Below, piece by piece: positions 1 through 15,900 of a DNA stretch of 17,788 bases (position 1 is its first letter; each line of letters starts with the position of its first letter). The stretch is from Nitrospira japonica. Lineage in GTDB: Bacteria > Nitrospirota > Thermodesulfovibrionia > Thermodesulfovibrionales > SM23-35. The DNA lies in NCBI GenBank assembly GCA_020725385.1, contig DYFC01000023.1, positions 1 to 17,788 of the forward strand, in the 5' to 3' direction. Made by a program: the position numbers and the translations under genes. The notes below the pieces were generated by a model that was not told the DNA's origin, did no database searches, and saw nothing but the letters and a program-made list of their open reading frames with translations.

Positions 1-204
1 AAAGAAAAGACACAAAGATTAAAGACACTGAGATTTAAGTATTTTGTATTGCCTGCACAATTAGGCAGCGACGGCAAAAAGAAAATGCTTAGGATTTTGG
101 TCATTTCTCAGGAAATAAAATCAAAACTCATTTATCTTTTTAACCGCATAATTCAACATTTTCCAGATTATACTGACATCTGCAATGCATTTGGATGGAG
201 ATAA
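1..204 (+). CDS. 3' end of a probable IS1380-family (DDE) transposase, partial at the window edge
   Basis: Frame 1 is open from base 1 to TAA at 202-204: KEKTQRLKTLRFKYFVLPAQLGSDGKKKMLRIL...FGWR*. The 'LKTLRFKYFVLPAQL..DG....LRI' segment resembles the C-terminal motif of IS1380 transposases. Not in the ORF track. Confidence 0.6.
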   Translation, partial: KEKTQRLKTLRFKYFVLPAQLGSDGKKKMLRILVISQEIKSKLIYLFNRIIQHFPDYTDICNAFGWR

Positions 205-479: not shown

Positions 480-534
480 AGCCAACGAAAAAATCACCCG
501 GAGCATAGCGATCAGGTGCATCGACTTGTTGGGC
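480..534 (-). mobile_element. Integron attC site (short, 55 bp)
   Basis: Minus strand: R'' GCCCAAC, spacer AAGTC, L'' GAT(G)CACC with extrahelical G, loop, L' GGTGAT, spacer TTTTTC, R' GTTGGCT. It starts 19 nt after the stop of the zinc-ribbon gene. R'' complements the cassette's own start GTTAGGC (1272-1266) at 6 of 7 positions. Confidence 0.75.
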
Positions 535-553
535 AAAACATTCTGTGACAATG

Positions 554-799
554 CTATGAAAGTGCGCCGCCACAATTCGGGCATTTTGCTTCCCCGCCTA
601 CAATACTCAAAAGACCGAATCGTGCGCCACATTTTTTACAGCTGGCGTTTGCAATAGTTGTAGTCTTAGGGCCACCCGGTGCCGCGACCAAAGGGCCACC
701 GCATCCAGGGCATACTGGTTTGCCACCAACAGATGCAAAAGTACCGATTGTCGTGTTGCAACGCGGGCAGTGGTGACCAAAGAAAACATTAGTTTCCAT
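554..799 (-). CDS. Small tandem double zinc-ribbon protein (81 aa, 2 x CxxC-x15-CxxC), cassette-borne, function unknown
   Basis: CPRC-x15-CPGC and CKKC-x15-CPNC form an internal duplication. Start reassigned to ATG 799 (METNV...), with SD AAGGAG inside the last codons of the upstream gene. Confidence 0.8.
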   Translation of the reverse strand: METNVFFGHHCPRCNTTIGTFASVGGKPVCPGCGGPLVAAPGGPKTTTIANASCKKCGARFGLLSIVGGEAKCPNCGGALS

Positions 800-806
800 G
801 GATGTT

Positions 807-1244
807 CTACTCCTTTTCGATTTGTCCACCGATCTTTAATCCAGTGACATTCTTCGATGCAGTGGCTATTGTTCGAATATGTGTACCGGCTTGCATTGTA
901 ACAGGACCGCTATTTTCTGCGACATGAACACCCACTACTGAATCTGCACCATGAGCGCAAGTTTCGATTAGCCCTTGCAGTATGAAGCCTTGCGTATTTA
1001 ACTCTTTTGCAGCTTGGGAAATGGCGTCATCAATTTTACAAAGCATTTCCAAAATGACATCTTGGATTATTTTCTGTTTTTCTTCGTCTATTGCATCGTC
1101 ACGACCCACGAAAATTTTCCCAAGCGCCCCCAACGGGTCAGAAAACGCTCCGAATAATGCACTTATTGCATTACGGTTTAAAACCTTTTTCTTTCTGCTC
1201 TTGAGCTGCTCGTCGATTGCGTTTTCAACGATATGCCTGTCCAT
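807..1244 (-). CDS. Hypothetical protein (145 aa): helical N-terminus and beta pseudo-repeat C-terminus; first gene of the cassette
   Basis: ORF track 807..1277. The start is moved to ATG 1244 (MDRHIV...) because AGGAG precedes it and the longer start lies inside the attC. Confidence 0.8.
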   Translation of the reverse strand: MDRHIVENAIDEQLKSRKKKVLNRNAISALFGAFSDPLGALGKIFVGRDDAIDEEKQKIIQDVILEMLCKIDDAISQAAKELNTQGFILQGLIETCAHGADSVVGVHVAENSGPVTMQAGTHIRTIATASKNVTGLKIGGQIEKE

Positions 1245-1265
1245 GTTAGCTCCTATGAATTTACT

Positions 1266-1356
1266 GCCTAACGCCAATCATCAGCCGCACCGCTACAAAG
1301 TTTTGGCTGAAAAACCGCCAAGCTTATTCGGCGTCGACTGTATGAATTTGTTATGG
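1266..1356 (-). mobile_element. Integron attC site (91 bp) closing the hicBA cassette
   Basis: Minus strand: R'' CCATAAC 1 nt after the hicA stop. Left arm TCAT(A)CAGTCG(A)CGCCG pairs with right arm CGGTGCGGCTGATGA, leaving two extrahelical bases. R' GTTAGGC is a perfect GTTRRRY. Confidence 0.85.
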
Positions 1357-1357
1357 C

Positions 1358-1546
1358 TCACTTTATTTGTTTTATGCCAAGATCCTTACAAATCTTTCGT
1401 GCGAGGTGATCATCAATTTCAGTATGTCTTGGAACAGATGATCGTTTGTTTTGACTTGGATTTATCCACCATGAATGACGGCTGCCTTCTCTAATAAATT
1501 CACAACCTTGTGACCGCAAATATTTTAGCAGGTCAGTTCGTTTCAT
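1358..1546 (-). CDS. hicA: HicA-family mRNA interferase toxin
   Basis: 62 aa, basic, with 'REGSRH' (catalytic His) and 'VPRHTEI...LARKICKDLG', typical of HicA. Overlaps hicB by 4 nt (ATGA). Confidence 0.9.
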   Translation of the reverse strand: MKRTDLLKYLRSQGCEFIREGSRHSWWINPSQNKRSSVPRHTEIDDHLARKICKDLGIKQIK

Positions 1547-1755
1547 ACGGCTATTATTTCTTCGATATATCCTGATCCTACGGCGGAGATAGCGTCTTGG
1601 CGGTTAAATTCGAGTGCCTCTTTTAACGTAAGCCGAAGGCTTTCAATTAGTTCTTCACGTGTTCGTTCTTGACAGTTCACACCTGGAATTTCCTCTATCC
1701 AGCCAATCCACCAATCGCCTGATTGCTTTAGTATTGCAGTATATTCTTTATTCAT
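1543..1755 (-). CDS. hicB: HicB-family antitoxin (short form, no DNA-binding domain)
   Basis: 70 aa with 'YTAILKQSGDWWIGWIEEIPGVNCQERTREEL' (HicB partial RNase H fold). SD AGGAGG is present and the gene is coupled to hicA. Confidence 0.9.
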   Translation of the reverse strand: MNKEYTAILKQSGDWWIGWIEEIPGVNCQERTREELIESLRLTLKEALEFNRQDAISAVGSGYIEEIIAV

Positions 1756-1787: not shown

Positions 1788-1816
1788 ATCATATGCTTTT
1801 AATATAGATATCTCAA
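1788..1816 (-). promoter_or_regulatory. Putative sigma70 promoter of hicBA
   Basis: Minus strand TTGAGA-17 nt-TATGAT. A second TATAAT lies at 1783-1778. TA cassettes commonly carry their own promoter. Confidence 0.5.
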
Positions 1817-1931: not shown

Positions 1932-2013
1932 TATCCGTAATCCGTATTCCGTTGCACATATAAAAAAATGACACGGTTAAAGGATACGGGAAGCGAATTT
2001 TTATGCAATATCT
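1932..2013. repeat. Degenerate copy of a dispersed palindromic (MITE-like) repeat
   Basis: Hand alignment with 14025-14106 gives about 61/83 identical positions, including GTAATCCGT, ATATAAAAA, GACAC.GTTAA.GGA and TGCAATATCT. Confidence 0.6.
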
Positions 2014-2039
2014 TTATTTTTCAGGGTAAAATAAATAAT

Positions 2040-3488
2040 ATGAATCTTAAAGAATATTTTTTGAGCATTTCACTCAATAAAAAGTTAATAGGCATGATGC
2101 TTTTTTTAAGCCTTATTGTTATTTCTATACTTACATACCTTTATTCACAGTCTGAAAGAGCGCTTATGAATGAACTTGAAAAACAAACTTCAGAACTTTC
2201 GAAAGCTATACAGGTTGGGGTAGAAGAAGTCACAACAACAGGATACACCGATGAGATGAGGCTCCAGAATTACCTGAAAAAGCTTAATGCAAAAGGTGTA
2301 AAGGAAATTTCCATTATAAGTCCTTCTGATGAGATTGTCGCAAGCACCAATCCGCAAAAAATTGGCGAACAACTCGGACCTACCAAAAAAGAAAGAATTA
2401 TCAAAGCAGAACTTGGAGAGCCTGTTACAAAAGAAGGAAAGGTTTACAATGTTATACTTCCTGTTGTTGCAGGAGATGCACATTATGGATATATACATCT
2501 TAAGATTAATGTAGAAGATTTTTCAGAGATTATAGAGAATAATGCAATCAAAAGAATTATTGCAATTATTATAGTATTCGGTATCGGTATTATTCTGGCT
2601 GTCATTTTGTCGTTAATGTACACAAAACCCATACATAATGTAGTTGATGCTGCGAAAAGTGTCGCAGCAGGAGATTTAACAGTGGAGCTTATGACTAATA
2701 GGAAAGATGAAATCGGTGAATTAACGCAGAGTTTCAACCATATGTTGAAAAAATTAAGAGAAGAAAAAGAGATGGAAGAAAAACTTCGCGAAGCAGAACA
2801 CCTCTCGGCTATTGGCCAGCTTGCAAGAAGTATTGCTCATGAAATCAGAAATCCTCTTAATTTTATCAGCCTTTCTATAGACCATATTAAGAAAAAATAT
2901 GTTCCTGAAGCAGAGAAAGAAAAAGAACAGTTTGAATCACTTATTAATAGCATTAAACAGGAAATCCAGAGACTTAACAAACTTGTTGGAGATTTTCTTG
3001 ATTATGGAAAGCCAATGAAATTGAATTTTCAGAATACAAATATTGAAACTCTTATAAATGATATTTTAGACCTCGTAAAAATAAAAGCAGAAAAGGATAA
3101 CATTAGAATAAATTTTCAAAAAGGCGAAGTCCCTTTATTATCTGTTGACCCTGAACTTATTAAAACCTGCATCTTCAATATAATACTTAATTCTTTTCAG
3201 GCAATGTCTGACGGGGGCGAACTTAATGTTGAGACAAACACAGTAAATAATAAGGTTCAGATAATAATTCGTGACACGGGCGCCGGTGTATCAAAGGATA
3301 ATATACAGCGTATTTTTGAGCCTTTTTATTCAACAAAAAGTAACGGTCTCGGGTTGGGACTTGCCATGACAAAGAGAGTTATTGAAGAACACGGCGGTAA
3401 AGTTGATTTTAAAAGTGAAGAAGGTAAAGGGAGTGTAATGACTATTATGTTACCAATAAACACCAAGATTAATAATATTCAGGCATAA
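2040..3488 (+). CDS. Membrane sensor histidine kinase (TM, periplasmic domain, TM, HAMP, HisKA, HATPase)
   Basis: Two hydrophobic helices, HAMP 'RKDEIGELTQSFNHM', H-box 'AHEIRNPL', N-box 'NIILNS', 'DTGAG', 'FEPF', 'GLGLGL'. ATG 2040 is preferred because the 1968 start lies inside the repeat. Confidence 0.93.
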   Translation: MNLKEYFLSISLNKKLIGMMLFLSLIVISILTYLYSQSERALMNELEKQTSELSKAIQVGVEEVTTTGYTDEMRLQNYLKKLNAKGVKEISIISPSDEIVASTNPQKIGEQLGPTKKERIIKAELGEPVTKEGKVYNVILPVVAGDAHYGYIHLKINVEDFSEIIENNAIKRIIAIIIVFGIGIILAVILSLMYTKPIHNVVDAAKSVAAGDLTVELMTNRKDEIGELTQSFNHMLKKLREEKEMEEKLREAEHLSAIGQLARSIAHEIRNPLNFISLSIDHIKKKYVPEAEKEKEQFESLINSIKQEIQRLNKLVGDFLDYGKPMKLNFQNTNIETLINDILDLVKIKAEKDNIRINFQKGEVPLLSVDPELIKTCIFNIILNSFQAMSDGGELNVETNTVNNKVQIIIRDTGAGVSKDNIQRIFEPFYSTKSNGLGLGLAMTKRVIEEHGGKVDFKSEEGKGSVMTIMLPINTKINNIQA

Positions 3489-3506
3489 TTCAGGGGGCTT
3501 TATTTA

Positions 3507-4883
3507 ATGTCTGTTATCCTGGTCATAGATGACGAAAAACTTCAGAGGGATATTCTTAGAACAATTCTCGAAGATGAAGGATTTGAAACCCACACTGCTT
3601 CTTCTGCTGAGGAAGGACTTGAAATCATAAAGAAGATAAGACCTGATGTTGTGCTGACTGATTTAAAGATGGAGGGCATGGATGGTATTGAGTTAATCGA
3701 TTCCCTGCCCGAGGAACCTTTCAAGCCTACAACAATTGTCATGACAGCATTTGGAACAATATCATCCGCTGTTGATGCCATAAAAAAAGGTGCTTTTGAT
3801 TATCTGACAAAGCCCCTTGACAAGGAACTTTTGCTTGTAACTATTAAAAGAGCAGCAGAAAGAGCAATACTCCAGAAAGAAAACCTGCGTCTCCAGAAGG
3901 ATTTATACGGAAAATTCTCTTTTGAGGGAATTGTGGGACATTCACAAAAAATGGTAGAAGCAATCGAAGTCGTCAAAAAAGTTTGTTCGAGCAATGTAAA
4001 TGTATTGATACTAGGAGAAAGCGGTACAGGCAAAGAACTCATTGCAAGAGCTATTCATTATAATAGTCCAAGAAAGACAAAGCCTTTTGTTGCGGTTAAC
4101 TGCGCTGCTATCCCGGAAAATTTAATTGAAAGTGAACTTTTTGGTCATGAACCCGGCTCTTTTACAGGAGCAACATCAAGAAGCATCGGATTATTCGAAT
4201 CAGCAAATAATGGCACAATTTTTCTTGATGAGATTGGAGATCTACCAGCTTTAACTCAATCGAAAATCCTGCGCGTGCTTCAGGACAAGGAGATAAGAAG
4301 GGTGGGAAGCCGTGATAGCATAAAAATAAATGTAAGAATTATTTCAGCAACAAACAAGGATCTTGAAAAAGAAATTATAAATAAAACGTTCAGGGAAGAC
4401 CTTTTTTATCGTTTAAAAGTAATTACAATAAACTTGCCGCCTTTAAGGGAGAGAAAAGAAGATATACCGGATCTCGTCTCTTTTTTTATTAAGAAATATA
4501 ATCGTGAATTTGGCAAGAGAATTAACGGTATAGATGATAATGCAATGAAAGCTATTATAGAATATCACTGGCCCGGAAATATCAGGCAGCTCGAATCAGT
4601 TATTGAAAGAGCAGTAATAATGTGTGAAACACGTAATATAAGTCTTAAAGATATAAAAAGTGAACTCAGGTTCATTCAGGGATCAGGAATACTCGATATA
4701 GATTTGCCGGATGAGGGAATTAATTTTGATGAACTTGAGAAAGAATTGTTAAAAAAAGCAATGGAAAAAGCAAATGGAGTTGCTGCAAAAGCTGCAAAAC
4801 TTCTTGGTATGACCTATAAGACTTTCTGGTACAGATGGGAAAAACTCGGCTCAAGTTCCCCAAAAAAGGAAGCCGTTCCCTAA
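3507..4883 (+). CDS. Sigma54-dependent response regulator (NtrC/AtoC/ZraR type: REC, AAA+, Fis-type HTH)
   Basis: REC (DD, 'TDLKM', 'TAFG', 'KP'), Walker A GESGTGKE, 'ESELFGHEPGSFTGA', Walker B 'FLDEIG', 'WPGNIRQL' and a C-terminal HTH. Confidence 0.95.
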   Translation: MSVILVIDDEKLQRDILRTILEDEGFETHTASSAEEGLEIIKKIRPDVVLTDLKMEGMDGIELIDSLPEEPFKPTTIVMTAFGTISSAVDAIKKGAFDYLTKPLDKELLLVTIKRAAERAILQKENLRLQKDLYGKFSFEGIVGHSQKMVEAIEVVKKVCSSNVNVLILGESGTGKELIARAIHYNSPRKTKPFVAVNCAAIPENLIESELFGHEPGSFTGATSRSIGLFESANNGTIFLDEIGDLPALTQSKILRVLQDKEIRRVGSRDSIKINVRIISATNKDLEKEIINKTFREDLFYRLKVITINLPPLRERKEDIPDLVSFFIKKYNREFGKRINGIDDNAMKAIIEYHWPGNIRQLESVIERAVIMCETRNISLKDIKSELRFIQGSGILDIDLPDEGINFDELEKELLKKAMEKANGVAAKAAKLLGMTYKTFWYRWEKLGSSSPKKEAVP

Positions 4884-4890: not shown

Positions 4891-4915
4891 ATATTTAGAA
4901 TCTAATTTTATTCAT

Positions 4916-4928
4916 AATCAATGAGTTA
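4916..4928 (+). promoter_or_regulatory. IHF binding site
   Basis: AATCAA-TGAG-TTA matches WATCAA-N4-TTR exactly, has an AT-rich 5' flank and sits between the UAS and the promoter. Confidence 0.65.
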
Positions 4929-4933
4929 GCACC

Positions 4934-4949
4934 TGGCAGGTATTTTGCT
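4934..4949 (+). promoter_or_regulatory. Sigma54 (-24/-12) promoter
   Basis: TGGCAGGTATTTTGCT: GG (4935-4936), 10 nt, GC (4947-4948), in TGGCA...TTGC context. Confidence 0.8.
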
Positions 4950-5015
4950 TTTAACTTATGGCTGTTTAATAATTTTTAAAAATATTTAAATAACTTGTGA
5001 AAGGAGGTGATTTTG

Positions 5016-5522
5016 TTGAAGAGAACAATAGCTATTTTAGTATCCCTTATGTTTGTTCTTTCTTTTACAGCCCTCTCATTTGCAGTAGAGAAAGCCGCTG
5101 CTCCTGCAGCACCTGCAAAAGCTGAGGAGAAGAAAGCTCCTGCAAAGGCTGAAGAGAAAAAGGCTGCTCCAGTAATGGAAGAAAAGAAGGCTCCTGTAAA
5201 AGTAAAACAGGTTACAGGTGATGTCGCAGCAGTTGATGCAAAAGCAAACACCATCACTGTAAAAGGTAAAAAAGGCGATGTAACAGTTGCATGTGATGCC
5301 AAAACCAAAGTAATGATGGGTAAAGAAGCAAAGACTCTTGCTGATGTTAAGGTTGGTGACAAGGTTACAGTAAAATATACTGAAGCTGACGGCAAAATGA
5401 CAGCAAAGAGCGTTGCAATTAAAACTGCAGAGAAAAAGGCCGAGCCTGCAAAGGTAGAAAAGAAAGCAGAGCCTAAAGCAGAGAAAAAAGCAGAGCCTGC
5501 AAAACCAGCAGAGAAAAAATAA
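5016..5522 (+). CDS. Secreted/periplasmic Lys-Glu-Ala-Pro-rich protein with a central small beta-barrel (DUF5666/OB-like) domain
   Basis: SD AAGGAGGT then TTG 5016 gives the signal peptide MKRTIAILVSLMFVLSFTALSFA. AEEKKAPAK/AEKKAEPAK repeats flank 'VTGDVAAVDAKANTITV...LADVKVGDKVTVKY'. Confidence 0.85.
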   Translation: MKRTIAILVSLMFVLSFTALSFAVEKAAAPAAPAKAEEKKAPAKAEEKKAAPVMEEKKAPVKVKQVTGDVAAVDAKANTITVKGKKGDVTVACDAKTKVMMGKEAKTLADVKVGDKVTVKYTEADGKMTAKSVAIKTAEKKAEPAKVEKKAEPKAEKKAEPAKPAEKK

Positions 5523-8412: not shown

Positions 8413-10407
8413 ATGGAATTCCTTGATATTGAAAATCTATCCGATTTATTAAATCACCTTGCAAAGCTTACCGGGCTTCCTATCTCTTTATACAATTCAA
8501 AAGGCGATATTATATTCCAGACGTTAAACGAATCCGGAATATTAAAAACTATTAAATGTTCTTCGGCCGGCATTTCAGAATATAACGAATTTGTTAAGAA
8601 ATCTATAAATAAAGCAATTCTTTCTCCCGGGGTTTCGATTTTTAAAGGTCCCGAAGACGGTTACCATTTCTTTGCTCCTGTGAATTTAAAGAAAAATATT
8701 CTCATAATAGCAGGAGGCGGTGTATATTTATCATTAAAAGATTTCGAAAGATTTTTCGAGAAAAAGAAAGATTATTATTCATTCCCTGAAACAAAGAATA
8801 ATGGTTTCAACCCGATAATAATAGAAAAATTATCTTCTTTTATCAGTACAGCCCAACATATTAAATCAATTTTTACCATAATATTCACAGGAAATTACAA
8901 ACATAATATTAATGAAAAAAAATACAGGGTAATGAAAATAATGATGGAAATTATTTCGGATATCAATACCGGAAATCAGAAAACCAATATATTCCATACG
9001 CTGTCAGACATGATACTTTTCTTTTTTAATGTAGAAAGCCTTGCAATTTTGATCAGAAACAATGATCTGCTTGAACCGGTTTGGGCTGCCGGCAAGCTGA
9101 GGGATTATTTAACAACAACCAATCTCAAAATAAATGGTTTTATTGAAAAAGCGATAGAAGAACAAATATGCGTTTACAGTGATTCAGCCATGGATATAAT
9201 GAGTGCCGGATTAAATGAAGATATAGTTTCAATTTTTACATTTCCGATTATTACCGGCAATGAAGCAGCCGGGATATTGAACATAATCAATACTAACCTG
9301 ATAGCTGAAGATATTCAATTGATAACAGAGATTTGCAGGGTAGCGGGTTTAATGCTAAGAGTGGCACAGCTACAGGATGCATATCAAAAATATATAAGGG
9401 ATGTTAATACTCTCTGGAGTGCTGCTGAAAGAATAATACCTTTGATGGAGCCGGATGAACTTTATAATGCAATACTCGAAACATCTGTACGGCTTGCCGA
9501 AGCAGAAAAGGGCTCCCTGCTTTTAGCAGAAGGTGATTCATCGTTACTTACTATAAAAGCTGCAAGAGGCATTCATAAAAAACTTTACGATGCAGTAAAA
9601 GTAAAGCCAGGTGAAGGTATAGCAGGAAAGGTTTTTACAGAGGGAATTCCTGTGCTTGTTGATGATATTGAAAAAATCCGGGATATAAAATCATCCAGAA
9701 AATATAAATATAAAACAGGTTCATTTCTAAGTATTCCTCTTAAAATAGGTGATAGAACAATCGGGGTCCTAAATATAGCTGATAAAATTACAGGCGGCAT
9801 TTTTTCCGAAGAAGACATGTCCTTGATACGTTCTTTTGCTTCGTATGCTACCATAGCTCTTGAAAGGTCAAATTATTATAATCTTGCCGAACATTTACGT
9901 GAACTCTCAATTACGGATTCCCTTACAGGTTTATTTAACAGAAGATATTTCGAAGAAAGATTTATTGAAGAACTTCACCGCTCCGGGAGGCATAATCTTT
10001 TATTTTCATTGGCGATGATTGATATTGATGATTTCAAACTTTTCAATGACACAGAAGGACATCTCTCAGGAGATGAAATGTTAAAAGCAATATCGTTTAT
10101 TGCAAAAGAAACCCTGAGGGTAAGCGATGTTATAGCGCGTTTTGGAGGCGAAGAATTTGCTGTAATTATGCCCCAGACAAATAAAGAGGAAGCTTTTCTG
10201 GTTACCGAAAGAATCAGAAAAGCTGTCAGGGAATTGATTCCAAAGAACTGGAGAAAATATCCAAAAGAAGCAATTACAGTCAGTATCGGTATTGCTTCTT
10301 TTCCGGAAGACGGGGTAAACAGAAAAGAGCTTATAAGAAGTGCGGACCGTGCACTTTATCGTTCGAAGATGGAAGGAAAAGATAGAACAACTGTTTGGTC
10401 GGTTTAA
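8413..10407 (+). CDS. Diguanylate cyclase (PocR-like, GAF-like, GAF, GGDEF)
   Basis: 'DSLTGLFNRR', 'DIDDFKLFNDTEGH..GD', 'RFGGEEF' and a canonical RxxD I-site (RVSD). GAF motif 'GEGIAGKV...FLSIPL...IGVLNI'. Confidence 0.93.
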   Translation: MEFLDIENLSDLLNHLAKLTGLPISLYNSKGDIIFQTLNESGILKTIKCSSAGISEYNEFVKKSINKAILSPGVSIFKGPEDGYHFFAPVNLKKNILIIAGGGVYLSLKDFERFFEKKKDYYSFPETKNNGFNPIIIEKLSSFISTAQHIKSIFTIIFTGNYKHNINEKKYRVMKIMMEIISDINTGNQKTNIFHTLSDMILFFFNVESLAILIRNNDLLEPVWAAGKLRDYLTTTNLKINGFIEKAIEEQICVYSDSAMDIMSAGLNEDIVSIFTFPIITGNEAAGILNIINTNLIAEDIQLITEICRVAGLMLRVAQLQDAYQKYIRDVNTLWSAAERIIPLMEPDELYNAILETSVRLAEAEKGSLLLAEGDSSLLTIKAARGIHKKLYDAVKVKPGEGIAGKVFTEGIPVLVDDIEKIRDIKSSRKYKYKTGSFLSIPLKIGDRTIGVLNIADKITGGIFSEEDMSLIRSFASYATIALERSNYYNLAEHLRELSITDSLTGLFNRRYFEERFIEELHRSGRHNLLFSLAMIDIDDFKLFNDTEGHLSGDEMLKAISFIAKETLRVSDVIARFGGEEFAVIMPQTNKEEAFLVTERIRKAVRELIPKNWRKYPKEAITVSIGIASFPEDGVNRKELIRSADRALYRSKMEGKDRTTVWSV

Positions 10408-11316: not shown

Positions 11317-11500
11317 TTTAAAACTCTAAATTTTTCCAATTCTAAAAGGTTCTATAAGAGATTATTTTTTAAATAGTATCTTCTTGAAATAAAAAATTAT
11401 TATTTGAATAAATTGTTCTTGCATTAAATTGCTTAGATATGCTATAAATTCTACGTTTGTAAAACTTTTAAGAAAATTATCAAAACTCACAGGGGGTTAT

Positions 11501-13186
11501 ATGTGTAAGAAAATGGTCTTGTTAATGTTTCTTTTAGTTTCTTTCATGCTCTGCCCCATGTATGTTTTTGCTGCAAAAGCCGGCTCTGCCGAAAATAACA
11601 AATTATGTCTTCAATGCCATTCTGACAAGACTCTGACTAAAAAATTGTTGAACAAGGAGATTCTGTCACTTTATATTGATGGCGGTCAGTTTGCAGCTTC
11701 TGTACATGGGAAGATAAGTTGTAGCGGTTGCCACATTGATATTAATATGGATAATCATCCTCAATCAAAGAGAATTGCAAGCAGAAGAGACTATGCTTTA
11801 AGTGTCTCAAGAAACTGTTCAATTTGCCATACAGAAGCACAATTGAACCAGAGACAACCAATTCATAAAGCTCTTGCTGAGAAAGGACCATGTATTGAAT
11901 GTCATGGCTCACATTATATAAGGCCAACAGCTATCAATAAAGCAGGGGTACAGGAAAATGCATATTGTCTTACATGCCATAGAAATAAAATAAGTATGAG
12001 GATGAAAAATGGTGAAACTCTTTCAGTTTATGTTGATGAAAATGCATTTAATTTATCAGTTCATGCAAAACTTCAATGTAAAGACTGTCATGCTGAATTT
12101 TCCAAGACCCAGCACCCTGTGAGAACATTCAATAGCAGGAGAGCATATACTATAGCAGCTTCAGACCTATGCGGAAAATGCCATAAGGAAGCTGCTAAAC
12201 TTTATGAAACAAGTGTTCATATAGAACAACTTAAAGGTGGAAACGAAAAAGCGCCGACCTGTATTGATTGTCATGGAGACCATTCTGTTGTTAGCACTAA
12301 AAAAGATAAAACTATCGGAATTGTCTCCTGTAATAAATGCCATAGTGAAATGAACGCTTCATATGAAGCAAGTATGCATGGCAAAGCAAGAATTAAGGGA
12401 GATGAAAAAGCCCCTTCGTGTGCATCCTGCCATAATGCTCATAATGTTGAATCTGCAAAGATGACTACAAAAATAAAAGATGGTTGTTTGAGATGCCACA
12501 AAGATGCAGCGAAAGTTCACTCAAGATGGCTCTATAATCCTCCTGTTAAATTATCTACATTTTCAATCGCACATTTTGATGCTGTCTCATGCGCAGCCTG
12601 TCATTCACCCGGGGCAAAAAGAGGAATTTATTTAACACCTTATAACAGAAAAACCGGTAAACCTTTGTCAGAAGATGAAATAATGAAAACTCTCGGATTA
12701 GAATCCGATGGTTTGATGAAAAAATTCGATTCAAATTCAAATGGTAGCATCGAACCTAAAGAACTGTGGAATATTTTTGCAGAACTCTTCAAAAAGGGCG
12801 AGATGATAACATTTATGGGCAATATGGATGTACAAAAGGCAACAGAAGCCCATATGATTGGAAGTAAGGCAGAAGGTGTAAAAGACTGTGATAAATGCCA
12901 TAAACCCGATGCCGAGCTTTTCCAGAATGTATTTGTAGTTATAAAGAAATCTGACGGCAAACCTTTGATAATTCCTGCTTCAAAAGAAATATTGAATTCT
13001 GTTTATGCGATACTTCCTATGAGCAAATTTTATGTTCTTGGAAGTACAAGTATTAAGTTGCTGGATATAATATTTATCATTGCTCTGATTGGTGGTATAG
13101 CAGTACCAATCGGGCATATATCTTTTAGAATAATAACTTCTCCTATTAGAGCTTTGAGAAGAATGGGGAAGGGAGGTAAGAAATAA
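11501..13186 (+). CDS. Periplasmic multiheme cytochrome c (13 CxxCH) with an EF-hand-like loop and C-terminal membrane anchor
   Basis: Signal peptide from ATG 11501 (SD AGGGGG). Heme motifs: CLQCH, CSGCH, CSICH, CIECH, CLTCH, CKDCH, CGKCH, CIDCH, CNKCH, CASCH, CLRCH, CAACH, CDKCH. C-terminal TM 'LLDIIFIIALIGGIAVPIGH'. Confidence 0.93.
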   Translation: MCKKMVLLMFLLVSFMLCPMYVFAAKAGSAENNKLCLQCHSDKTLTKKLLNKEILSLYIDGGQFAASVHGKISCSGCHIDINMDNHPQSKRIASRRDYALSVSRNCSICHTEAQLNQRQPIHKALAEKGPCIECHGSHYIRPTAINKAGVQENAYCLTCHRNKISMRMKNGETLSVYVDENAFNLSVHAKLQCKDCHAEFSKTQHPVRTFNSRRAYTIAASDLCGKCHKEAAKLYETSVHIEQLKGGNEKAPTCIDCHGDHSVVSTKKDKTIGIVSCNKCHSEMNASYEASMHGKARIKGDEKAPSCASCHNAHNVESAKMTTKIKDGCLRCHKDAAKVHSRWLYNPPVKLSTFSIAHFDAVSCAACHSPGAKRGIYLTPYNRKTGKPLSEDEIMKTLGLESDGLMKKFDSNSNGSIEPKELWNIFAELFKKGEMITFMGNMDVQKATEAHMIGSKAEGVKDCDKCHKPDAELFQNVFVVIKKSDGKPLIIPASKEILNSVYAILPMSKFYVLGSTSIKLLDIIFIIALIGGIAVPIGHISFRIITSPIRALRRMGKGGKK

Positions 13187-13899
13187 TGACAAGAATATTT
13201 CTTCATCCAATACCAATTAGAATATGGCACTGGGTAAATGCGCTTGCATTTATAATTCTTATATTAACAGGCGCCCAGATAAAACTCGGAAATGCTATCC
13301 ACTTTTTCTCTTTCCATACAGCTGTTAAAATACATAGCTGGCTGGGATGGATTCTTGTATTCAATTACTTCATCTGGGTTATTTACTATTTTTCAACTGG
13401 TAATATAAAGATATATATTCCTCCTCTAAATCGTCCTGTTGAATATGCAAAAAAAGCATTGCGTCAGGCAAAATTCTATGGCTGGGGAATCATGGTTGGT
13501 GATGAAAATCCCCATCATTCAACTTTTGAGAACAAATTTAATCCAATGCAGCAAGTATCATATCTCATGATTATGGTCGCGCTAATACCTTTGCAGCTTA
13601 TAACTGGCATGTTATTATGGGATCCGAAACTGTTTGAACCTATTGTAAATATTGCAGGTGGATTGCAGATTGTTGATCTTATCCATGTTTTTCTCTGGAT
13701 TTTCTTCAGCGCATTTATAATAGTGCATTTCTATCTCGCAACACTCGGACATACGCCTATGGCACATATAATTGCCATGTTTACGGGTTATGAAGAATTG
13801 CATGATGATCACGGACACGGACACGGTCACGGTGAAGAGCATGGCCATGAGAAAGAACATCAGGATTCACACGGACACGGTGAAAGCCACAGTCACTAA
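13186..13899 (+). CDS. Membrane cytochrome b (Ni-hydrogenase/FDH cytochrome b type) with a His-rich tail
   Basis: 'RIWHWVNA', 'IHSWLG', 'KFNPMQQ.SY', 'LIHVFL' and 'IVHFYL'; four TM helices. TAATG overlap with the cytochrome c gene. Confidence 0.92.
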   Translation: MTRIFLHPIPIRIWHWVNALAFIILILTGAQIKLGNAIHFFSFHTAVKIHSWLGWILVFNYFIWVIYYFSTGNIKIYIPPLNRPVEYAKKALRQAKFYGWGIMVGDENPHHSTFENKFNPMQQVSYLMIMVALIPLQLITGMLLWDPKLFEPIVNIAGGLQIVDLIHVFLWIFFSAFIIVHFYLATLGHTPMAHIIAMFTGYEELHDDHGHGHGHGEEHGHEKEHQDSHGHGESHSH

Positions 13900-15340: not shown

Positions 15341-15352
15341 AAGGAGGTGGTT

Positions 15353-15619
15353 ATGAGAACCGCAACAATTACGGTACGCGTTGAGGAAGAACTAAGAGAC
15401 CGAATAGAAAAGATATCAAGAGCAACAGACCGTCCTATATCATATCTCGTGAAGCGAGCCCTTGAACAGGTCATAGAGCAAGAAGAGTGGCAAATCGGCG
15501 AAATCCAGCGGCGAATTGAATTAGCGGACCGCCCTGAAGCCAGGTTCATTTCTCATGAGGATATTGAAGCTTGGCTGAAAAGCTGGGGCACCAGGAGAGA
15601 GAGGAAGCCGCCTAAATGA
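15353..15619 (+). CDS. CopG/ribbon-helix-helix antitoxin
   Basis: RHH 'TITVRVEEELRDRIEKISRATDRPISYLVKRAL' and C-terminal 'FISHEDIEAWLKSWGT'. SD AAGGAGGT favours ATG 15353. Confidence 0.88.
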   Translation: MRTATITVRVEEELRDRIEKISRATDRPISYLVKRALEQVIEQEEWQIGEIQRRIELADRPEARFISHEDIEAWLKSWGTRRERKPPK

Positions 15620-15900
15620 ACGTAAAGTGGTTAACGGAGGCGAAGCAAGACCTTGTTGAGATCCGCACATATATTGCAAGCGAGCACCCTGACACTGCTC
15701 GGAGCGTCGCACAACGCATACTCGATACTATCGCTTATTTGCGTGATCATCCAGAAATCGGCAGAATAGGACGAATTACAGGCACGAGGGAGCTAGTAAT
15801 ACCCGGACTTCCCTACATTGTCCCCTATAGAGTGAAAGGAAGCGTGATCGAAATTTTAGGCGTACTGCATGGGGCTAGAGAATGGCCGAAGGAGCTTTGA
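15616..15900 (+). CDS. RelE/ParE-family toxin
   Basis: 'VKWLTEAKQDLVEIRTYIA', 'PEIGRIG...GTRELVI...PYIVPYRV...ILGVLHGAREWP'. ATGA overlap with the antitoxin. Confidence 0.92.
   Translation: MNVKWLTEAKQDLVEIRTYIASEHPDTARSVAQRILDTIAYLRDHPEIGRIGRITGTRELVIPGLPYIVPYRVKGSVIEILGVLHGAREWPKEL

Follow-up and report, generated by a model that had tools for sequence, protein, structure and literature searches.

A promoterless two-gene integron cassette in an integrase-less attC cluster carries a candidate conflict module of an apparently undescribed family

The window considered here, i.e., the whole stretch of 17,788 nt that was analysed, carries close to its start two small genes on the minus strand, referred to below as A and B. 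Gene A (1244..807, minus strand, with the stop codon TAG at 809..807) encodes a protein of 145 aa and gene B (799..554, minus strand) a protein of 81 aa whose eight cysteines form a double zinc ribbon. The first-pass annotation had described the two genes as tightly coupled, and this was confirmed from the sequence: seven nucleotides (806..800, minus strand) separate the stop codon of A from the ATG of B, and the ribosome-binding site of B (AAGGAG, 815..810, minus strand) lies within the final codons of A. Integron attC sites are described by their boxes R'', L'', L' and R', with the consensus RYYYAAC/GTTRRRY and a crossover at G/TT. The upstream site, attC1 (1356..1266, minus strand), lies between hicA and gene A, and its R' core GTTAGGC (1272..1266, minus strand) marks the 5' end of the cassette, 27 nt before the ATG of A. 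The 5' crossover falls between G1272 and T1271, and the leader that follows (1271..1245, minus strand, 27 nt) contains the Shine-Dalgarno sequence AGGAG; no promoter-like site was found in it by a promoter scan, 27 nt being too short for one. This leader is conserved from the GTT core on in five other copies of the pair (loci L010, L011, L007, L013 and L014). At the other end, the cassette's own site, attC2 (534..480, minus strand, 55 nt), has its R'' box GCCCAAC (534..528, minus strand) 3' of gene B and its R' box GTTGGCT (486..480, minus strand) 41 nt beyond, the 3' end of the cassette being at G486. As the annotation had proposed, the two ends of the cassette match: when its 5' TTAGGC is placed after the G of its own attC, the resulting GTTAGGC can pair with GCCCAAC at six of seven positions; the equivalent pairing in L014 is seven of seven. 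All the other elements that it had listed, i.e., the genes, their spacing, the Shine-Dalgarno sequence and the flanking motifs, were recovered as well. Based on the boundaries seen in other copies, the A-B cassette is 1271..486, with one attC of its own.

A pattern scan with the strict consensus missed both attC sites of the window; its sole match was a palindrome within the IS-like repeat described below (151-273). The R'' box of attC1 needs one bulged A to fit, and the R' box of attC2 is off GTTRRRY at one position. Folded as single-stranded DNA, attC2 was not more stable than shuffled sequences (z of +1.2 and +1.4), and attC1 was mildly more stable on the gene strand (z of -1.6), its fold being a long imperfect hairpin with two single-base bulges in the 5' arm. 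Because of this consensus misfit and unimpressive folding, the sites were tested comparatively with a covariance model, R1, built from 20 clear attC sites of other, related loci. R1 has 67 positions and only 7 modelled base pairs, and is therefore mostly a sequence profile. It was searched against the entire 17.8-kb window, on both strands and with filters off, with E-values that are rough according to the tool. Full-length matches were obtained at 534..480 (minus strand, 24 bits, E of 3.6e-4) and at 1356..1266 (minus strand, 16.3 bits, E of 0.022); the third-best match had an E-value of 6.3, which leaves just two sites, bracketing A-B and oriented as the genes. A looser energy filter for attC was dropped for its many false positives. 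An attC profile run with nhmmer over the entire genome gave a single match (E of 4.1) and missed the window's own sites, hence this search is uninformative on further arrays in the genome.

The limits of the cassette can be read from other copies of the pair. Across 12 copies, the similarity of the region upstream of A to 11 other loci begins only at the GTT(G/A)GGC core, and GCCCAAC stands at the same position 3' of B in eight of the 12 aligned loci. With R1, an attC adjoining the pair was found in 11 of the 35 other loci, on both sides in three of them (L014, L017 and L018) and on one side in eight, and none was found between A and B in any of the 35. These counts are partly circular, 20 of the 28 R1 matches in other loci being the model's own training sites; eight matches are new, half of them (four) directly upstream of A. 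In independent metagenome contigs, which are about 97-98% identical, the match breaks off at 1273 and at 481-484. This comparison set 300-1700 against the runs X3, X4, X7 and X15, parts left uncovered being no evidence of absence. A DNA contig of X3 (792 nt) matches 525-1273 with 20 differences and diverges beyond 1273, and at its other end the X3 copy of the cassette departs from the window at 525, just past the R'' box. From X4, contigs at 483-633 and 621-790 cover B together with the attC of the window itself and no longer match before 483, and similarity ends at 481-484 in contigs of X4, X15 and X3. In addition, at least 10 contigs of X3, one bioreactor metagenome, match only 481/484-518 and have unrelated flanks on both sides; given so many contigs with differing flanks, the R' half of attC2 is a multi-copy repeat there. 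As a side observation, some organism in this bioreactor seems to have an array with attC2-type sites. It could be argued that the flanks are chance palindromes or terminators and that the pair is an ordinary chromosomal operon: both attC sites are off the strict consensus, the downstream hairpin is no stabler than shuffles and the genome has no integron integrase. However, the only two matches of R1 in the window are the two flanking sites, other loci and independent contigs share the boundaries, and clear attC sites flank the pair in L014, L017 and L018, so that this explanation is close to refuted. The earlier proposal that A and B would move as one cassette is thus upheld by the R1 matches bracketing the pair and by boundaries shared with other loci and with metagenome contigs.

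In the host genome (96.6% complete, 71 contigs) the pair is foreign and lies within a strain-specific island. It was found in one of 301 genomes of the order, which is the host genome itself, five other members of the genus being without it. The alignment of the nearest relative to the window begins only at base 2009, and in this relative the sensor kinase is immediately preceded by liv permease genes, at the place that the island occupies in the host. The liv genes of the host terminate contig C12, which stops in a multi-copy repeat. For the integron integrase model (TIGR02249), the best score in the host genome was 74.8 bits against a cut-off of 265, and the matches are ordinary tyrosine recombinases on other contigs. 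With no integron integrase in the genome, the pair therefore lies in a two-attC cluster without integrase.

The local order is hicBA, attC, A/B, attC and the IS-like repeat. Upstream of the pair and co-oriented with it, hicA (1546..1358, minus strand; HicA_toxin, PF07927, E of 2.2e-11) ends at attC1 and is accompanied by a hicB-like gene (1755..1543, minus strand) with a weak match to UPF0150 (E of 0.029). The best promoter-like site of the region in the promoter scan is at hicBA (1816..1788, minus strand), and a terminator-like stem with a T-run (1333..1316, minus strand) occupies the centre of attC1, between hicA and A. This stem could block read-through from the hicBA promoter, so that the pair may be silent here; terminator-like sites are no commoner than in shuffles (1 against a mean of 1.7). 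Contigs from RNA libraries with 98% identity cover 579-837 and 606-770, i.e., B and the A/B junction, which is a weak hint of transcription of the pair, since the tool warns that DNA can occur in such libraries. On the other side, the contig start (1..332) is the end of a multi-copy IS-like repeat, which cuts off whatever came after attC2. Contigs C68 and C33 have copies of its part 191-332 at their ends, with 92% identity. An open frame at 1-204 (plus strand), which we take to resemble a transposase C-terminus, had no Pfam match, and a palindrome of 123 nt (ATTCAAC...GTTGAAT) spans 151-273. The 147 nt between attC2 and the repeat (333-479) could represent the beginning of another cassette that the insertion truncated.

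Other features were observed farther along the window. A gene for a ParE-family toxin (15616-15900, plus strand; PF05016, E of 3.5e-17) overlaps the end of a 90-aa open reading frame (15347-15619, plus strand) that may be its antitoxin. A multihaem cytochrome of 585 aa, with Cytochrome_C7 and MtrC/MtrF-like domains, stands directly before a membrane protein of the cytochrome b561 type (11429-13899, plus strand). Genes for a sigma-54 two-component pair (1968-4883) and for a GAF-GGDEF protein (8413-10407) lie upstream of this cytochrome.

The predicted model of A (mean pLDDT of 83.3, pTM of 0.55) contains helices at 3-32, 37-45 and 47-85, then six short strands at 87-138. An N-terminal helical hairpin, whose conserved tip is hydrophobic and glycine-rich (about 26-47), is thus followed by a beta domain of two repeats at the C-terminus (about 86-140). 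The invariant residues N23, N25, A26, A29, F31, P37, G42, F45 and G47 are at the hairpin tip (23-47), which is also the most hydrophobic stretch of the family, with a mean of 1.2 over residues 29-47. The usual transmembrane hydropathy threshold is about 1.6, and since the tip stays below it, a membrane role is a guess. Residues 1-25 have a net charge of +3. In the C-terminal part, an internal repeat (IETxAxxxxxVVGVxI against IRTxATxxxxVTGLKI) was detected with an hhalign probability of 67%. Searches of A in Pfam, NCBIfam and PHROGs gave no match, and PADLOC-DB 2.0.0 (the 2023 library) gave no family for A or for B at E-values up to 1. With Foldseek, nothing in the PDB exceeded noise (best E of 0.64); the best E-value was 0.24 in a fold search against viral models and 2.4 against PDB sequence profiles. 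VIA-align against 48,161 chains had a best Z of 7.2, with generic helical hairpins, and its matches cover residues 1-85 only, so that the beta domain was barely tested. The ESM Atlas returned just the protein's own unnamed cluster (0.96) and no usable named cluster. The beta part alone was matched by a 507-aa Ig-repeat protein (E of 1e-4), and no informative domain was seen in 16 of 89 rows scanned for odd-length or longer relatives.

Gene B encodes tandem CxxC...CxxC zinc ribbons, with all eight cysteines conserved, and its model (pLDDT of 81.5) consists of two beta-hairpin zinc ribbons. The protein stays below the curated cut-offs of PF09723 (Zn_ribbon_8, 31.3 bits against 34.4), TIGR02605 (FmdB, 30.5 against 31.3) and PF12773 (DZR, 22.4 against 27.3). 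Like B, the FmdB/Zn_ribbon_8 and DZR proteins are small and carry tandem CxxC...CxxC knuckles, a likeness of the generic zinc-ribbon motif only. Foldseek gave noise (best E of 0.75), the best VIA-align match was the zinc ribbon of TFIIE-alpha (Z of 3.8), and PDB sequence profiles gave generic Cys-motif matches only. Hence neither protein family is recognised any better than in the first-pass annotation, with no above-cut-off match in Pfam, NCBIfam, PADLOC or PHROG and no fold match, and by their sequences A and B are a pair of an undescribed family.

The relatives of A amount to 94 at E-values up to 0.001 among 5.8 billion clusters. All have 112-169 aa and are called hypothetical wherever they are named. 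A profile of A run against 1.84 billion representatives found 89, of which 25 were below 1e-30. For B, the profile gave 94 proteins of about 80 aa, a family size like that of A (94 clusters each). B stands directly 3' of A in 34 of the 36 A-encoding loci (L007 and L010-L044, where L012 repeats L007 and L021 nearly repeats L020), five of these copies being cut by the contig end. The two exceptions are L044, without downstream DNA, and L042, where a 159-aa relative of A has no B in the remaining 118 nt. Two further loci, L008 and L009, were dropped as family members for their weak partial matches. A contig of a viral collection (L055) also has both genes, with B after A. A and B are therefore an obligate pair. 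A third gene 3' of B was considered and dropped: in L037 (4426-5358) and L039 (1411-2325), membrane-protein open reading frames of about 305-311 aa overlap the end of B, and they are mutually unlike (BLASTP best E of 3.4). These two copies are promoter-bearing and are not cassettes. Synonymous codon changes exceeded non-synonymous ones in both genes in four of five comparisons with close copies, so that A and B are both real coding genes. This is illustrated by the comparison with L007 (46 synonymous and 30 non-synonymous changes in A, 33 and 7 in B), the exception being L010 (17 and 11 in A, 5 and 6 in B). A prediction of the A-B complex, for which controls were not run, scored 0.02 against a mark of 0.32, a result that bears on binding in neither direction. 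Among the source names of relatives are Syntrophales, Acidithiobacillus, Parcubacteria, Pseudomonas and Paraburkholderia; tblastn of A gave no match in 72,556 plasmid records. Overall, the structural part of this description, i.e., the cassette, the pair, its mobility and purifying selection, is held with high confidence.

Elsewhere, the pair keeps varied company. In L018 (1-10429) it is part of an attC array with at least 13 R1 matches, all co-oriented, and the cassettes beside A-B encode a trypsin-like protein (PADLOC PDC-S45), a SIR2-domain protein, a serine hydrolase and a HigB toxin. In L011, by comparison, no attC was found on either side of the pair, which is flanked by a type ISP restriction enzyme on one side and a PIN-domain protein on the other, in an island with a type ISP/IIG enzyme, the PIN protein and a DUF1016 nuclease. 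The cassette leader is nevertheless kept there (4915-5040, with the core GGTGGGC) next to a copy of A 91% identical to that of the window, and this copy looks like a cassette fossilised in a defence island. Islands in L033 and L034 hold type III restriction-modification genes together with MNT/HepT, an AriA/Ppl-like ATPase is near the pair in L021, and integrases are near it in L028, L037 and L042. The more distant copies have promoter-like TTGACA/TATAAT boxes upstream, as read by eye and unscanned, and not attC. The follow-up proposed for homologues, i.e., to see if they co-occur and where they sit, gave B after A in 34 of 36 loci and some copies in attC arrays and defence islands.

A neighbour matching a PADLOC model (E up to 1e-8) was found in eight of the 18 longer loci, a count made without matched control and leaving out UvrB and a tRNA methyltransferase. 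These neighbours include type IIG and type III restriction-modification, a SIR2 protein, a Ppl/AriA-like ATPase and several PDC candidates. The other 10 of the 18 loci have no such neighbour, many array neighbours are unrelated genes without known function, and islands and arrays attract accessory genes whatever their role. These observations would suit a mobile accessory module with no part in conflict, in which A might be a small protein that self-assembles as a scaffold or serves in stress, and B a chaperone or regulator built of zinc ribbons. Integrons and islands would hold the module only because they hold accessory genes of all kinds. Such a module would also account for a promoterless cassette, like ordinary cassettes, and for the lack of similarity of A and B to toxin, nuclease or defence models. 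However, the pair is extremely rare and patchy, being missing from 300 relatives, and it repeatedly adjoins restriction-modification genes, toxin-antitoxin pairs, integrases and prophage tail or lysis modules, with no housekeeping context seen; we regard this explanation as somewhat unlikely. Indeed, neither independent occurrence of homologues in housekeeping contexts nor a confident match to a benign family, which would both have spoken against the first-pass proposal, was found when looked for.

Toxin-antitoxin genes are recurrent neighbours, with hicBA here and RES/Xre, HigB, MNT/HepT and PIN in other loci. Together with the fixed order of two small, translationally coupled genes, they could point to a plain addiction pair, which would stabilise arrays and islands without acting against phages, the toxin coming first and B being a zinc-binding antitoxin. 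Toxin-first pairs are known from hicAB, higBA and mqsRA, and MqsA is a zinc-binding antitoxin. Typical toxin-antitoxin cassettes have their own promoter, whereas the A-B cassette has none; furthermore, B has no DNA-binding domain beyond its zinc ribbons and no toxin family is recognised, which makes a plain addiction pair quite improbable. Two loci, L035 and L055, place the pair in prophage tail or lysis regions, as would be expected of a prophage moron that serves the phage, e.g., in superinfection exclusion or lysis timing, and was secondarily taken up by integrons. However, only one locus in 2.9 million viral contigs has the pair, tblastn of A found none in 50,697 phage records, and most loci are attC arrays or chromosomal islands, so that an origin as moron is highly improbable.

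From its rarity, its patchy spread and a company typical of defence and addiction modules, we infer that this promoterless integron cassette, with its obligate and undescribed pair, most likely encodes a conflict system in which A is the effector and B its partner, a tentative reading that we place slightly below an even chance. The module would act in anti-phage or abortive-infection defence, or in addiction. As effector, A could use its glycine-rich hydrophobic hairpin tip, together with the basic N-terminus, to engage the membrane, and it could self-assemble by stacking of its two-rung beta domain into oligomers. Translational coupling would keep B at a fixed ratio to A, and B might restrain A or sense the trigger. 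This working model of A and B is drawn from shape and analogy only. In a more specific form, which we consider unlikely, A and B would be a minimal abortive-infection system of a new type, with 226 residues, where B senses a phage product and releases A. Released A would then self-assemble through its beta domain and drive the hairpin tip into the membrane. Transfer of the module across phyla would take place both in the form of one integron cassette and as an accessory gene pair of prophages. Against a conflict role stand the absence of matches to defence or toxin models, the absence of a fold match and the lack of a promoter in the cassette, as well as the terminator-like stem upstream of A, the L042 relative of A with no B in the DNA left to it and the lack of an integron integrase in the genome.

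The A-B cassette has 0.8 kb and two proteins, with no relative of known function, and it is found in three kinds of mobile context. Should the pair defend or kill, it would offer a new architecture of effector and sensor, and one that lends itself to dissection. Should it do neither, it would show that a defence-rich setting does not make every tight two-gene cassette a conflict system. In either case, the boundaries give the exact fragment for cloning, which makes A-B a well-bounded and clonable candidate.

Among known systems, an analogy is that with HET-s/HeLo and the alpha-pore-forming YaxAB, A likewise being a helical hairpin with a short repeat beta domain. In the Foldseek results of A, HET-s(218-289) ranked 3 (E of 0.95) and YaxAB 47 (E of 4.9), with probabilities of at most 0.12, i.e., noise. 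Unlike these systems, A-B has no motif shared with a partner gene, no NLR-type neighbour and no sequence similarity to them. MqsR/MqsA shares with A-B two small coupled genes, the larger one first and the zinc-binding one second, in a mobile setting; B differs by having no helix-turn-helix, and A has no similarity to RelE-like or other toxin families. No paper describing the pair was found in the literature searched, which for the integron-defence papers means the main texts. According to these papers, many phage-defence systems have lately come to light among integron cassettes of formerly unassigned function, and many such cassettes are reported to protect against phages; the words zinc and two genes occur in neither of the two main texts searched. 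Like A-B, such defence cassettes are attC-bounded, promoterless and compact, A-B being a two-ORF unit in several arrays. The A-B host differs in having no integrase. Taken as a genetic element, A-B is an ordinary integron cassette, located in an attC cluster that has no integrase, and the pair that it carries is a good candidate for a new phage-defence or toxin-type module.
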